Shown: positions 35,834-41,650, counted from the first letter of the stretch. The stretch: 64,000 nt of DNA from an uncultured Verrucomicrobiae bacterium (GCA_963738225.1 CAVTVR010000011.1:131868-195867), one strand, 5' to 3'. The notes: generated from the sequence alone by a model not told the origin. Numbers and translations: made by a program.

Positions 35834-37303
35834 TCACGGCGTTGCGAGCCGATAAAAGCTATTGCTGCCGGACATCGGCAGGAAAACTTGATTCTGCAAA
35901 TTGGTCAAATTGAGAATGGGTGTGTTCGTCACGTCCGTCCAATTCGCAGTGGTCAAATCCGAATTCTGCTGTAACACGAGATTGGCCGAGGGCATGAGCC
36001 ATGACAGGGCAAGTTTATTTGAAGCCGCAATATTTAAAGCAGGTGGCGCAGTAAACTTCGAGATGTAAATGCCTCCATTCGCTCCCGCTATCAATTCGTT
36101 TCCATCTGCAGACGACGCGAGGCAATTCCAACTCAGATACGGCGCGCTGGCCTCGGCCCAGGTGTTCCCCGCGTCCCCCGATACGCAGATATTTCCAGAA
36201 CTTAAAACCGCCAGTCTGGTGCAATCGGCCGATGAAACAAGGCCGAATGCATACTGCATCCAGGCCGGACTGGGATAACTCACATTGACGCCCATCCAAT
36301 AGTCAACCGACTTCACTTTATCCCCGGACGCCGACAAAACCACGCTAATGAGAAACGAATCGTCCGGGACACCAACAAACTCATTCCAGTTAATCCCAGA
36401 ATTGGTTGAAACATAAATATAAGTATAATAAGGCGCGAGCACATGAAAAATCCCAGAGTAAGCAGCACCGGCCAGAGTTATTCCATCGGCGCTCGAAGCT
36501 TCGGATGTCCAAGTTAAGTTATATCCATCAGCGACAATGGGCGCACTTGTCTGGACCCACGTTACGCCTGCATTGGCCGAAGTATAAACGTGATTGAAAC
36601 CTGACGCGACCAGTCTATTTCCATCCGCCGAAGAAACGAGATAGCCAAATATGGTTGGGGTGTTGTTGGATGTCCAGGTTCCGCCCGAATTGGTTGAGGT
36701 GTAAATCATGCTCCCGGCGATGGCGGCCAACTTGGTTCCATCCGTCGAAGAAACAATACCATTCCAGTTCGTATTGGGCGCGCTGGTTTGCATCCAAGTG
36801 TCACCCGAATTCGTAGAAATCCAGATGCCGCCGCCGGAACTTTCGGCCACAATTTTGGTTCCATCGGCTGAACAAGCGATACCGTTCCAATTTAAATTAG
36901 TTGCACTGGTTTGGACAAAGACCGGCACGGTCGTGAAACTGAAGATGCTCGACCAATTGCCGTAGGTCGAACCTGGCCCTCTGCCGCGCACTCTCCAGTA
37001 ATACGTCGTTCCCCCATTGAGCACCGTTGAGGGTGTGTCCGAAGTGTTGTTTGCGACCTCAAAAATGACACAGCCCGGACCGGTGGAGGCCGTCGGGTCG
37101 GTCGGCAGCGTTGCGCTGCTGGTTGCTACCGCAAGGTAATAGCCCGCAGTGACCCCAGACACCGCACTCCAACTATAGGTCGGGGTCGTCGAAACACCCG
37201 TCGCTCCGTTGGCCGGGTTGCTCAAGTTCGGTGCAGGAAGGTTTGCCGCTTCAGTTTGCAGACACGCAAATGTGACTAACAGACAGAAAATGATTGATTT
37301 CAT
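35834..37303 (-). CDS. Secreted protein: FN3-like + BNR/Asp-box-like (SADG..; STNSG.TW) propeller + C-terminal domain
   Basis: Signal peptide, TYYWRVRG, repeated SADG/STNSGxxW, ends QQNSDL..NW...SFYRLATP. Confidence 0.85.
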   Translation of the reverse strand: MKSIIFCLLVTFACLQTEAANLPAPNLSNPANGATGVSTTPTYSWSAVSGVTAGYYLAVATSSATLPTDPTASTGPGCVIFEVANNTSDTPSTVLNGGTTYYWRVRGRGPGSTYGNWSSIFSFTTVPVFVQTSATNLNWNGIACSADGTKIVAESSGGGIWISTNSGDTWMQTSAPNTNWNGIVSSTDGTKLAAIAGSMIYTSTNSGGTWTSNNTPTIFGYLVSSADGNRLVASGFNHVYTSANAGVTWVQTSAPIVADGYNLTWTSEASSADGITLAGAAYSGIFHVLAPYYTYIYVSTNSGINWNEFVGVPDDSFLISVVLSASGDKVKSVDYWMGVNVSYPSPAWMQYAFGLVSSADCTRLAVLSSGNICVSGDAGNTWAEASAPYLSWNCLASSADGNELIAGANGGIYISKFTAPPALNIAASNKLALSWLMPSANLVLQQNSDLTTANWTDVTNTPILNLTNLQNQVFLPMSGSNSFYRLATP

Positions 37304-37310
37304 AGATGGC

Positions 37311-38021
37311 TTATTTCGTCGGTGGTGTGGGTTGCGGCGGAGCCGGCGGCGCGGGCGGCGTGTGGTTGTCCGGCGGGAAAGTGTTCAATCGGAATTCGTC
37401 GCGGGCGGCGGCGTTGGCCGGGTCGGTGGCCGGGAATTGCAAGTCGGCGGCGTTTTGAATGGTCAAAAGATGTTCGTAAAAGTCGGCGGCATCGGCGTCT
37501 TTCAAGGCGGTCGCTTTTTGGGCGTCGCTCTGGCCGGATTGCCGGGTCTGGGTGCTGGCGGGGAAGGTGCCGCGCACGGTGGTGAAGGCCGTGGTCTCGG
37601 CATCGGTCCAGCCTTTGAGTTTGAGCGCGGCCAGGTTGGTTTGCACGGCGGCCAGAATGATGTCGGCCCGGCTCAAGACGGAGCCGAGGTCGTTGGCATG
37701 GTGCGCGCCGATCTGAAATTCCTGATGCAGCTTCACGGTCTGGTGGGTGAAGGCCAGCTTGGCGGTGGCGCGCGCCTGGTTCATGCAGTGCAGCAACCGA
37801 TCCAGATTGGCCTGCTGCGCCGAGGTGAGGTTGCCGGTTTCGCCCTTGGCGATTTTCTGGCCGGTCACGTCGGCGGGGATTTTGGCGAGCAACGCGGTGG
37901 TGTCGGCCAGGTAGCCGGCGGGCAGCCGGGCGGCGACATCGGGATATTTGTGCGCGGCGGCGGCGATGAGGTTGCCATTGTAAGCCAAGGTGGCGATGGG
38001 GAAGTGCGGGCGATGATTCAT
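37311..38021 (-). CDS. Hypothetical all-helical protein with Pro-rich tail
   Basis: 236-aa Ala-rich amphipathic ORF with strong host codon bias. Its stop is 7 bp from the next ATG. Confidence 0.8.
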   Translation of the reverse strand: MNHRPHFPIATLAYNGNLIAAAAHKYPDVAARLPAGYLADTTALLAKIPADVTGQKIAKGETGNLTSAQQANLDRLLHCMNQARATAKLAFTHQTVKLHQEFQIGAHHANDLGSVLSRADIILAAVQTNLAALKLKGWTDAETTAFTTVRGTFPASTQTRQSGQSDAQKATALKDADAADFYEHLLTIQNAADLQFPATDPANAAARDEFRLNTFPPDNHTPPAPPAPPQPTPPTK

Positions 38022-38025
38022 GTCA

Positions 38026-38208
38026 GTTGATGGTTGAGGGTTGAGGGTTGATAGTTAAAAAGACCCTCACCCCGTCCCTCTCCCATCCGATGGGAGAGGG
38101 TGTCCGACAGGACGGGTGAGGGTTTGGCCGCAGGTAGGGCGCGTCAGTCCTCTGCGCGCCGGGGCTGGGTTGCCGGGGAACGGCGCGCACGGAGTGACGC
38201 GCCCTACC
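38026..38208. repeat. Stack: GGTTGAG heptamers, ACCCTCACC palindrome, GTAG REP variant
   Basis: 38026-38056 heptamers; 38063-38123 ACCCTCACCCCGTCCCTCTCCCATCCGATGGGAGAGGG..GGGTGAGGGT; 38133-38208 GGTAGGGCGCGTCA..TGACGCGCCCTACC. Confidence 0.75.
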
Positions 38209-38232
38209 ATATTTTGCCTGGAATGCCATAAA

Positions 38233-38500
38233 ACTCTTGCCGGCAGAGGCTTGTGAAACGCGGCAGGCGGAGGCAAATTCGCGGCAGGAACATTCAAATA
38301 GCGGGCAAAGGCGGAAAAATTGGAGGCAAAAAGATTCCAAAACGCGGCGGAATGAGTCAAATTGGCGGCAGGCCTTGCCACGGCGCGGCAAGACCAGCCA
38401 GATTCGCGGCAGAGGATTTTCAATTCGCGGCAGTGGGAAACGAATTGCGAGCGTCGCTTCAGGATTCGCGGCAGCCGTCGCCGAAACGCGGATTGCGCCA
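38233..38500. repeat. 20/21-bp phased degenerate array, 13 units, consensus caaattcgCGGCAG + 6-7 variable nt
   Basis: Core starts at 38241, 38261, 38282, 38303, 38324, 38345, 38366, 38386, 38407, 38428, 38449, 38469 and 38489. Confidence 0.85.
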
Positions 38501-38723
38501 GAGGGAGGGCGATTTTTGACGACAGTAACCCCCGCACTGTTATCCATTGCCCAGTTGCGCCAAACCTTCTGAATGTCCCCAACTTCCTCATGGCTTATGC
38601 GAATGATTTATTGATAACGACGATAAAAAAGTCAAGCGCATAGCTCATAATGACAATCAAAGTCGAAAGAATGACAAGAAACGGTGAGTTTGCCGTTCAC
38701 AAACTATCAAGGTAGCAACGGTC

Positions 38724-39830
<1,107 letters not shown>

Positions 39831-39868
39831 TATTCAGCGAAGAATCCAGACGAATGACAAGATACAAG

Positions 39869-39957
39869 GGACAGCGCGCTGCGCTGTCCGGCGGTAAAGC
39901 GCCGGAATCATTGCGCCCGCGATACGGGCGCGGACGGCGCAGCGCGCCATCCCTACC
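39869..39957. repeat. Right part of the IS110-interrupted family-A REPIN
   Basis: GGACAGCGCGCTGCGCTGTCC...GGACGGCGCAGCGCGCCATCCCTACC. The left part is 38691-38715. Confidence 0.88.
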
Positions 39958-40049
39958 AAATTTAACACGACGTTTTCACGCGGACGCAGTGCTACCGGAT
40001 TGAGTTTGGTTTGACCGGCGGGCGTTTGATTGTTAAAAGATGGCTGTGA

Positions 40050-40796
<747 letters not shown>

Positions 40797-40798
40797 CC

Positions 40799-41650
40799 AT
40801 GCCCGAACTGCCGGAAGTCGAAGTGCTCGCCCGCCACCTGCGGCCTCTGCTCTGCGGGCGGACGATCCGGGAGATTGATGTCCGCCGCCCAAGAGTTTTG
40901 CAGCCGACTACGGTTGCCCGGTTCAAAAAAATTCTGCGCGGGGCAAAGTTTATCGGGCTTTCGCGGCGCGGAAAATACCTGCTCTTTGAACTGCGCCCAA
41001 AAAATTCCCGCGGAAAAATCAGCTTGCTCGGCCATCTGGGCATGACGGGCCGGATGTTTCTCGCGCACAAAAAGACGCCGCCGCCGAAACATGCCGCCGT
41101 GATTTTCGACCTCGGCGCCAGCAATTTCATTTACGAGGACACGCGCTATTTTGGCCGGCTGACCCTGGATTTGTCCTCGGTTGAAAAACTCGGCCCCGAA
41201 CCGCTGGACGAAAATTTCACGCCGGAAAATTTCGCGCGCGAATTGAAACGCTCACGCCAGCCGGTCAAAGTCAAATTGCTGGACCAATCGCTGGTCGCGG
41301 GCGTCGGCAATATTTATGCGAGCGAGGCCTTGTTTCGCGCCGGCATTTCGCCGCGCCGCGCCGCGAACCGGCTGACACCGGCGCAGGTGGAAAAGCTCTG
41401 GCGGGCCGTCCGCGACGTTTTGGCCGAAGCGATTGATCGCGGCAGCACGATGCCGCTGAATTTCAGCGCCGGCAAAACGGATGGACTGTTTTATTTTGGC
41501 CGCGCCGCCGGCGCGGAGGATTATTACGCCGAGCGATTGCGCGTCTATGATCGTGGCGGGAAACCCTGTTTAAATTGCCGGTCGCCCATCCGACGGATCG
41601 TGCAGGCGGCGCGCAGCACGTTTTTTTGTCCGCGCTGCCAAAAGGCCTGA
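40799..41650 (+). CDS. mutM: Formamidopyrimidine-DNA glycosylase
   Basis: MPELPEVE, RRGKYL, HLGMTG, GVGNIYASE, C-terminal Zn finger. Confidence 0.97.
   Translation: MPELPEVEVLARHLRPLLCGRTIREIDVRRPRVLQPTTVARFKKILRGAKFIGLSRRGKYLLFELRPKNSRGKISLLGHLGMTGRMFLAHKKTPPPKHAAVIFDLGASNFIYEDTRYFGRLTLDLSSVEKLGPEPLDENFTPENFARELKRSRQPVKVKLLDQSLVAGVGNIYASEALFRAGISPRRAANRLTPAQVEKLWRAVRDVLAEAIDRGSTMPLNFSAGKTDGLFYFGRAAGAEDYYAERLRVYDRGGKPCLNCRSPIRRIVQAARSTFFCPRCQKA

Follow-up and report, generated by a model that had tools for sequence, protein, structure and literature searches.

A 21-bp array upstream of a gene for a helical protein

The window, by which we mean the whole 64,000-nucleotide stretch of DNA analysed here, comes from the genome of an uncultured Verrucomicrobiae bacterium and carries on its minus strand an array of short tandem repeats 5' of a same-strand gene for a 236-aa protein (Table 1). 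Both the array and its placement had been noticed in an earlier reading of the sequence alone. Each unit consists of a core, CTGCCGCGAATTT in the sense of the gene, and 7-9 variable nucleotides. Scoring of the 13-mer AAATTCGCGGCAG over positions 38200-38540 located 11 units, which match it at 8-13 of 13 positions and start at 38234, 38254, 38275, 38296, 38317, 38338, 38359, 38379, 38400, 38421 and 38462; two weaker units, at 38442 and 38482, were read directly from the sequence. The steps across these 13 units (20, 21, 21, 21, 21, 21, 20, 21, 21, 21, 20 and 20) reproduce exactly those of the sequence-only reading, as does the presence of two overlapping, register-changing open reading frames (ORFs) of 174 aa each on the minus strand. 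We ran the autocorrelation analysis that had been proposed and found that the strongest periodicity in the window is lag 21 at 38239, with a value of 0.464 in 252 nt, compared with a mean of 0.394, a standard deviation of 0.011 and a maximum of 0.425 in 30 dinucleotide shuffles of the window; the periodicity of the array is well above chance. All five occurrences of AWTTCGCGGCAG in the window, at one mismatch or fewer, lie within the array, as do the only two exact copies of the 12-mer AATTCGCGGCAG in the 3.34-Mb genome. A repeat-family search recovered a 7-copy family with 21/42/41 spacing, and Tandem Repeats Finder missed the array because its units are too degenerate. A 13-nt core with a 7-9-nt spacer is also unlike the ~25-36-nt repeats and like-sized unique spacers of CRISPR, which had rightly been excluded.

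Table 1. Positions of the array, its surroundings and example sibling arrays. Positions without a contig prefix are those of the window; C numbers are contigs of the same genome.
Feature	Position	Strand	Sequence, composition or basis
489-aa ORF	35834-37303	minus	begins 8 nt past the stop codon of the 236-aa gene
Gene for 236-aa all-helical protein with proline-rich tail	37311..38021	minus	no Pfam family
C/A-rich heptamer tract	38026..38051	minus	CCTCAAC x3.7, directly 5' of the start codon
Two palindromic REP-like insertions	38063-38123, 38133-38208		array-to-start-codon gap; repeat search
Proximal segment ('tail')	38226..38258	minus	TTTCACAAGCCTCTGCCGGCAAGAGTTTTATGG; overlaps last one or two degenerate units
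21-bp-type array	38234..38500	minus	13 units of 20-21 bp; 13-mer scoring and autocorrelation
Conserved leader, promoter-like site to array	38501..38603	minus	invariant ATG 38591-38589; motif ATGAGGAAGTTGGGGACATTCAGAAGG 38591-38565
Promoter-like site P1	38607..38635	minus	-35 TTGACT (38635-38630), 17 nt, -10 AATAAA (38612-38607)
IS110-family element	38710-39954		DEDD_Tnp_IS110 and Transposase_20
IS110 transposase ORF	38724-39698	minus	
Sibling arrays, examples	C14:193575-193911, C14:177927-178245, C8:19129-19527, C7:30898-31331, C5:206187-206424		

Anatomy of the cassette

As read from the sequence, the cassette around the array opens with a housekeeping-type promoter and a conserved leader; past the array come a conserved proximal segment and REP insertions, and the gene closes it. 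The promoter-like site, P1, precedes the first unit by ~100 nt and is directed towards the array; its equivalent in relatives is AAAACTTGAC-N17-tAnAAt. By eye, P1 has the form of the tRNA-gene promoters of the same genome, and the call rests on this likeness; a scan of 37900-38760 with a strict promoter consensus listed no site, P1 included. We infer that P1 is used as a promoter and, because the array lies downstream of a housekeeping-type promoter, that the array is probably transcribed. An IS110-family element lies ~75 bp upstream of P1, outside the cassette. Further IS110 copies are found at contig ends (C7:1-1245 and C13:191373-192545), and a 21-bp array at C13:192760 adjoins the second of these.

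The leader of relatives likewise has an invariant ATG, together with the motif ATGAGnnnnnnGnnACAnTCnGAAG, and RNAalifold on 12 leaders (-1.4 kcal/mol) gave no consensus fold or covariation. In some loci the leader motif is followed by an 8-nt microsatellite, (GCGCAACC)n, and then by AGTGCGGGG. Microsatellites of variable copy number separate promoter and array in five leaders, those of L110 (own genome, C14:44880-45580), L038, L056, L073 and L071, as GCGCAACC x3-7, CAGCGCAC x7 or CAGA xn, and slippage at them could alter leader length.

On the gene-proximal side, the tail corresponds by eye to a TTTGCAA-N~16-AGCAATTTAC-like segment that is kept after many arrays, although a loose pattern search missed the window's copy. 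Across sub-families this proximal segment is kept as TTTGCAA-N~16-AGCAATTTAC or TTATTTTCAAYGATTTAC, and it contains a last, atypical copy of the core. We rejected two candidate roles for it: as a terminator hairpin it was no better than shuffles in 32 loci (mean z -0.24), and as a sigma-70 promoter it lacks, by eye, the A2/T6 of the -10 hexamer of own-genome tRNA promoters. No terminator-like site was found between the window's array and the gene. In one sub-family (L081, L074, L019 and L060) a separate promoter-like site is located directly 5' of the start codon, so that an array can also lie upstream of a promoter. The REP insertions noted in the gap are present as two palindromic elements; copies of them occur in other loci, in many of these between the proximal segment and the start codon, and once among the loci between leader and array. 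Ahead of the start codon, many homologous loci resemble the window in having a C/A-rich heptamer tract (CTCAACC or similar) in place of a Shine-Dalgarno sequence.

The 236-aa protein

The gene adjacent to the array encodes, as had been thought, an uncharacterized helical protein. Its predicted structure is an all-helical bundle (pLDDT 82), and it has 20 basic and 20 acidic residues by manual count. More than 430 relatives were found at 90% clustering and 393 clusters at 50% identity, and the few that are named come from Limisphaerales or Verrucomicrobia. Searches with the protein of Pfam, PHROGs and PADLOC gave no specific match, and ESM Atlas returned unnamed clusters only. The structure search that had been recommended brought no specific relative: Foldseek (PDB and BFVD) and VIA-align matched generic helical bundles, and a solved-structure profile search gave nothing specific. 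The best VIA-align row, a hepadnavirus capsid (Z 9.1 over 98 residues), was set aside because it falls within helical-bundle noise. No Pfam match to a ribbon-helix-helix, helix-turn-helix (HTH) or winged-helix type was obtained, and the fold matches were likewise generically helical. NCBIfam PQLLE_fam (NF052641) matched weakly at residues 42-194 (19.1 bits, E 8.3e-4); we rejected membership against a curated cut-off of 80 bits. Members of the PQLLE family resemble the window's gene in having 21-bp arrays upstream: this was so in the two examined loci that score above the cut-off, L088 and L089, and in the sub-threshold L093, L094 and L095. A search for papers mentioning this family found none.

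Some members of the 236-aa family have a fibronectin-III-like domain, as in P0071, where a helical part, a proline-rich linker and a beta-rich C-terminal part follow one another. In one sub-family (L044-type loci; P0121, P0105 and P0028), the helical domain is preceded by an additional conserved N-terminal segment (…DPNL.W.DPSYILEPGDPGY…), which lies between it and the array. The 489-aa ORF downstream of the window's gene, which is probably co-transcribed with it, shows weak matches to BNR/sortilin-type repeats and an apparent signal-peptide-like N terminus; it is not kept beside homologues of the 236-aa gene.

The array is tied to the gene in related genomes

When 40 relatives were searched at the DNA level with the array as query, no match was obtained because the motif diverges too fast, which makes the protein the useful probe. 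By protein search, 15 of 61 genomes proved to carry the gene, often more than once, and all 17 parsed loci had 7-17 units of 21 bp upstream on the strand of the gene. The cores differ by locus (TCCCCAATTT, TGCCCCGATTT, TCCCGCAAAATCC, CTGCCGGG, GCTCCTC, GGCGGCCA and others). We then took 56 loci from species-representative genomes and dropped 13 of them (six with short upstream DNA, six partial matches and one duplicate). Upstream autocorrelation reached at least 0.5 at lag 21 or 42 in 40 of the 43 remaining loci, compared with none of 55 downstream flanks. By eye, two of the three misses, L053 and L067, have degenerate units, and L060 has none. The association between array and gene that the sequence-only reading had proposed is therefore upheld, and the circumstance named as fatal to it, homologous genes that lack arrays, applies to only a few paralogues (L019 and L060). 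The genes downstream of the homologues in 31 other loci are mutually unrelated, among them genes for TIR, BspA-type LRR, AP2, nucleotidyltransferase and C5 methylase proteins and for housekeeping enzymes, so the unit consists of the array and this one gene. Judged from these genomes, the pairing recurs widely in soil Verrucomicrobia.

Constraint acts on nucleotides rather than codons

To compare substitution patterns we used seven orthologous loci and counted pairwise differences by codon position, which were 0.23/0.22/0.21 in the array, 0.15/0.12/0.14 in the leader and 0.10/0.06/0.19 in the gene of the same loci. Folded at 21, the array has eight contiguous conserved positions (0.02-0.13), and the remainder vary (0.26-0.42). 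Across 52 arrays and 561 steps, we counted 484 steps of 21, 42 of 20, six of 22 and four of 19, with none of 18 or 24; the mean step, 20.92 bp, corresponds to two helical turns of 10.46 bp each.

These measurements bear on the possibility that the array belongs to a translated upstream ORF or an N-terminal extension made of heptad repeats (LPRI or xPNF type), in which case the peptide, or the act of translating it, would matter. Such an ORF could begin at the invariant ATG, which lies ~10 nt past the inferred transcription start and whose frame, in 14 of 18 loci, runs without a stop through the whole array, nine of the 18 being close relatives, compared with 0/18 and 3/18 for the other two frames. 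Three database gene calls (P0121, P0105 and P0102) also fuse leader, array and protein in-frame. However, codon periodicity, which the gene has, is absent from the array, the leader and the first 13 codons. The CCCC of the core is nearly unchanged in 80 aligned unit copies, which is unlike a proline codon, and shows no third-position pattern in any frame. The frequent steps of 19, 20 and 22, with 18 and 24 never seen, would have the motif read in changing registers. Stops appear after 17-24 codons in L038, L064 and L065, and in all three sense frames of L011. Stop-free stretches frequently coincide in two or even all three sense frames, a composition effect: we read open frames as arising mainly from the C-rich, G-poor make-up of the sense strand (C>G in 50 of 55 arrays). 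We regard a translated ORF as quite improbable. The array is non-coding, as first suspected, and constraint falls on its nucleotides: it lacks codon periodicity, its core is contiguous and its step errors are of +/-1 and never +/-3.

The core changes in concert between orthologous arrays

Orthologous arrays can be aligned unit by unit, and their spacers drift by point mutation. Co-evolution of motif and protein had been suggested as a check, and we found that the core motif does change in concert between orthologues. In L037 the core reads GCCCCC in eight of ten aligned units, whereas seven other orthologues have xTCCCC (TCCCCAAT in L034-type and CCCCCAAT in L037-type arrays); the atypical core copy in the proximal segment was spared. 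The spacers of L037 are still 74% identical to those of L034, and L041, which is equally diverged, keeps 10/10 cores. In L046, most cores have moved to CCCCTTTG. Because spacer orthology is preserved, this is not whole-unit homogenization, and the concerted change would be most simply explained by an altered specificity of the factor that reads the core. Since one genome contains about 17 different cores, such a reader must be locus-specific, and the adjacent 236-aa protein would be the obvious candidate.

A genome-wide class of arrays with a two-turn period

The genome contains about 17 intergenic arrays of period 21 or 42, each with its own core. A scan of the whole assembly over lags 6-69 found 14 arrays at lag 21, 12 at lag 42 and 10 at lag 63, and 0-2 at each of the other lags from 10 to 62. 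The two-helical-turn period described for the window is thus a property of a class, with a mean step of 20.92 bp and with 21, 42 and 63 as nearly the sole tandem periods of the genome. The genes that most sibling arrays face are small, unannotated and drawn from several families (L096, 244 aa; L097, 137 aa; L098, 185 aa; L099, 135 aa; L100, 224 aa; L101, 232 aa; L102, 140 aa), for which Pfam and NCBIfam returned nothing above threshold; in a few cases the neighbour codes instead for an ECF sigma factor or a regulator of the ArsR type. The family of L101 has more than 1,100 proteins, whose consensus reads, from the N terminus, as a helical part and a proline-rich linker followed by a C-terminal domain that looks beta-rich and fibronectin-III-like and has no Pfam match. 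Comparison by hhalign of the window's family with a second array-linked family gave a probability of 0.6%, and with single neighbours less than 1%. The promoter and leader before L100 are nearly identical to those of the window, so the same promoter and leader precede a gene of another family without detectable homology. The only property common to the arrays before the 236-aa family and the family of L101 is the two-helical-turn period. Cores in some sibling arrays are dyad-symmetric (GGAAA-NN-TTTCC and GTATNGCGATAC), the usual form of site for dimeric DNA-binding proteins, which favours a DNA platform; the window's core has no dyad symmetry.

It is also conceivable that the arrays are functionless minisatellites, spread by slippage or duplication and merely tolerated where they lie. 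Many arrays have a 42- or 63-bp super-period, which shows that they grew by block duplication, and two orphan arrays, of TCCCCAATTT and TCCCGCGAAATCC types (C8:173466-173775 and C7:454305-454602), are followed by the proximal segment and then by no 236-aa homologue. Neutral repeats would nevertheless be hard to reconcile with unit-by-unit orthology between species whose proteins are 70-85% identical, with cores far more conserved than spacers, with position and orientation to the gene kept in 40 of 43 loci and with a strictly quantized period. We therefore consider this explanation quite improbable.

Comparison with known repeat systems

The array belongs to no known family that we compared it with. 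A literature search on intergenic, ~21-bp helical-turn tandem repeats in bacteria or Verrucomicrobia found no description of the element (PMC4210602, in the portion available, merely counts short tandem repeats), and one on DUF6261, judged by its listings, found nothing relevant. We rejected three further candidates: a CsrA-type sponge, since GGA motifs are out of register; a Rho loading site, which leaves the periodic core unexplained; and a G-quadruplex or i-motif, which is not general across arrays.

Tandem direct repeats are familiar from plasmids. Partition arrays include R1 parC (10 x 11 bp), pSK41 parC (20-bp repeats) and F sopC (12 x 43 bp), and iterons of R6K, P1, F and RK2 measure 17-22 bp. 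Like partition arrays, the window's array consists of direct repeats directly 5' of the gene of a presumed binder, at a spacing that is a multiple of the helical repeat, and its many sites would suit cooperative same-face binding and auto-control. Like iterons, its 13 units of 20-21 bp span about two helical turns and combine, in direct orientation, a conserved core with a variable rest. These likenesses, and the IS110 copy that adjoins it, could mark the array as a plasmid-type iteron array or a partition centromere (an origin, or parC/parS/sopC-like) that came from or serves a mobile replicon. The sequence-only reading had suggested iteron- or parS-like membership, which our results do not support. 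No Rep initiator was found, the neighbouring protein being all-helical and without a Pfam family, nor any ParA, ParM or TubZ NTPase in the operon, where the downstream gene is BNR/sortilin-like in the window and unrelated in 31 other loci, nor, among the Pfam and fold matches, a ribbon-helix-helix, HTH or winged-helix binder. In contrast to plasmid elements, the arrays number about 17 in a 3.3-Mb genome, on large chromosomal contigs, and the window's array lies downstream of its promoter rather than over it; the IS element is outside the module. An iteron or centromere is highly improbable.

A possible role of the repeats as RNA

A second group of alternatives places recognition in the transcript. 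The repeats may act as RNA made from P1, either in the form of a long leader or as an RNA of their own, with the 21-nt units binding the encoded protein or another factor, in the manner of type III toxin-antitoxin pairs, where repeat RNA neutralizes the protein, or of TIGR-like arrays; in an alternative form, they may control mRNA stability, termination or translation. A repetitive RNA had also been raised in the sequence-only reading, and it gains weight from the probable transcription of the array. Taken jointly, we think these forms unlikely, but they make up the main rival of the explanation favoured below. P1, in the tRNA-promoter form, points into the array, the orientation of array to gene is fixed, and the C>G sense strand of 50 of 55 arrays folds more weakly than the antisense strand in 22 of 25. 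This skew is, however, absent from three of the five distant PQLLE-model arrays (L093, L094 and L095), and L089 is near parity. No structure or covariation was found in 12 leaders and 25 arrays, nor a significant hairpin or terminator between array and gene, and genes without arrays exist (L019 and L060). Repeat length in type III toxin-antitoxin loci is specific to each family, whereas period 21 is common to arrays with unrelated motifs and neighbours.

The order of promoter, tandem repeats and same-strand protein gene is that which defines type III loci (ToxIN, CptIN and TenpIN) in the available excerpts of PMC3401426, where these are multi-copy, patchy, often in variable regions and endowed with a locus-specific repeat motif. 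Here, too, same-strand repeats lie upstream of the gene behind a promoter, albeit one predicted from sequence, and the module, found in 15 of 61 genomes, is multi-copy with a patchy distribution, TIR, nucleotidyltransferase, methylase and IS genes adjoining some loci. The ToxI repeat is, however, 36 nt x 5.5 in the same excerpts, compared with 21 nt x 9-20 in the window's class, which has one period across unrelated arrays, no palindromic terminator and no RNA fold, and the window's all-helical protein has no ToxN-, CptN- or TenpN-type match in Pfam or PADLOC.

TIGR-Tas systems, as far as excerpts of PMC12045711 and bioRxiv 10.64898/2026.09.09.750476 describe them, likewise have 8-12-nt repeats and ~9-nt spacers, in arrays that stand beside, upstream of or inside the gene of a small helical protein and are too degenerate for CRISPR finders. 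Those arrays alternate edge and loop repeats with UG...CCA boxes in a 36-nt unit, whereas the window's has one repeat type in a 21-nt unit, with cores that end in A/T-rich bases and lack UG...CCA, and with spacers that drift among orthologues through point mutation. No Nop domain was found: Pfam Nop (PF01798), searched over the whole genome at E up to 10, gave no match where archaeal controls did, and there was no Nop or Tas chain among the 50 fold matches listed.

A proposed phased DNA platform

Probably the array is an element, undescribed so far, that serves control or assembly. Our best explanation, which we hold tentatively, is that it forms a helically phased, same-face platform in the transcribed leader, occupied by a locus-specific reader that is possibly the gene's own product. 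The cassette, a reusable one, would start with a housekeeping-type promoter and ~100 nt of leader, continue with an array of 9-20 21-bp units and the proximal segment, and close with a gene whose small helical product would in some relatives be joined to a fibronectin-III-like domain. Each unit would present one 9-13-bp core, all cores facing the same side of the double helix, and the reader would occupy them side by side and thereby set the level of gene expression. A possible mode is that it cooperatively blocks or wraps the DNA between promoter and gene, auto-control being the simplest case.

That recognition would take place on duplex DNA rather than on the transcript is suggested by the single period common to arrays with unrelated cores and different neighbours, by the mean of 20.92 bp, which corresponds to two turns of B-DNA, and by deviations of one base, 20 being seven times commoner than 22. 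Fold z-scores were ~0 on both strands of 25 arrays, giving no RNA structure, and Rfam returned nothing relevant at E up to 10 in 36500-41000 and nothing at gathering score in 17 related loci. Several observations count against the platform. The 236-aa protein has balanced charge and no recognizable nucleic-acid-binding fold, which speaks against it as the reader, and DNA-binding regulators do not usually have a fibronectin-III-like domain such as some of its relatives carry. Since promoter and leader are shared with a gene family that shows no detectable homology, the neighbour is not necessarily the reader. A probably transcribed array whose sense strand is C-rich and stop-poor in all frames fits an RNA function, and the arrayless paralogues L019 and L060 also weigh against the platform.

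A bolder reading, possible but doubtful, is that cassettes of promoter, shared leader and 21-bp-quantized array form a widespread class of self-contained nucleic-acid/protein assemblies, for example repeat-RNA/protein pairs with type III or TIGR logic, or a sequence-coded DNA-protein filament. If so, the array would be more than an ordinary operator. The scale is considerable, with 393 clusters at 50% identity in the 236-aa family and at least one further family of more than 1,100 proteins behind arrays, and the module, which comprises no more than promoter, leader, array and one gene, is directly testable; it may lead to sequence-specific nucleic-acid readers of a new family or to a tunable expression cassette of a new type. 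The two-turn period of nearly all tandem repeats in this genome points to an unrecognized rule of gene control or nucleoprotein assembly in Verrucomicrobiota.
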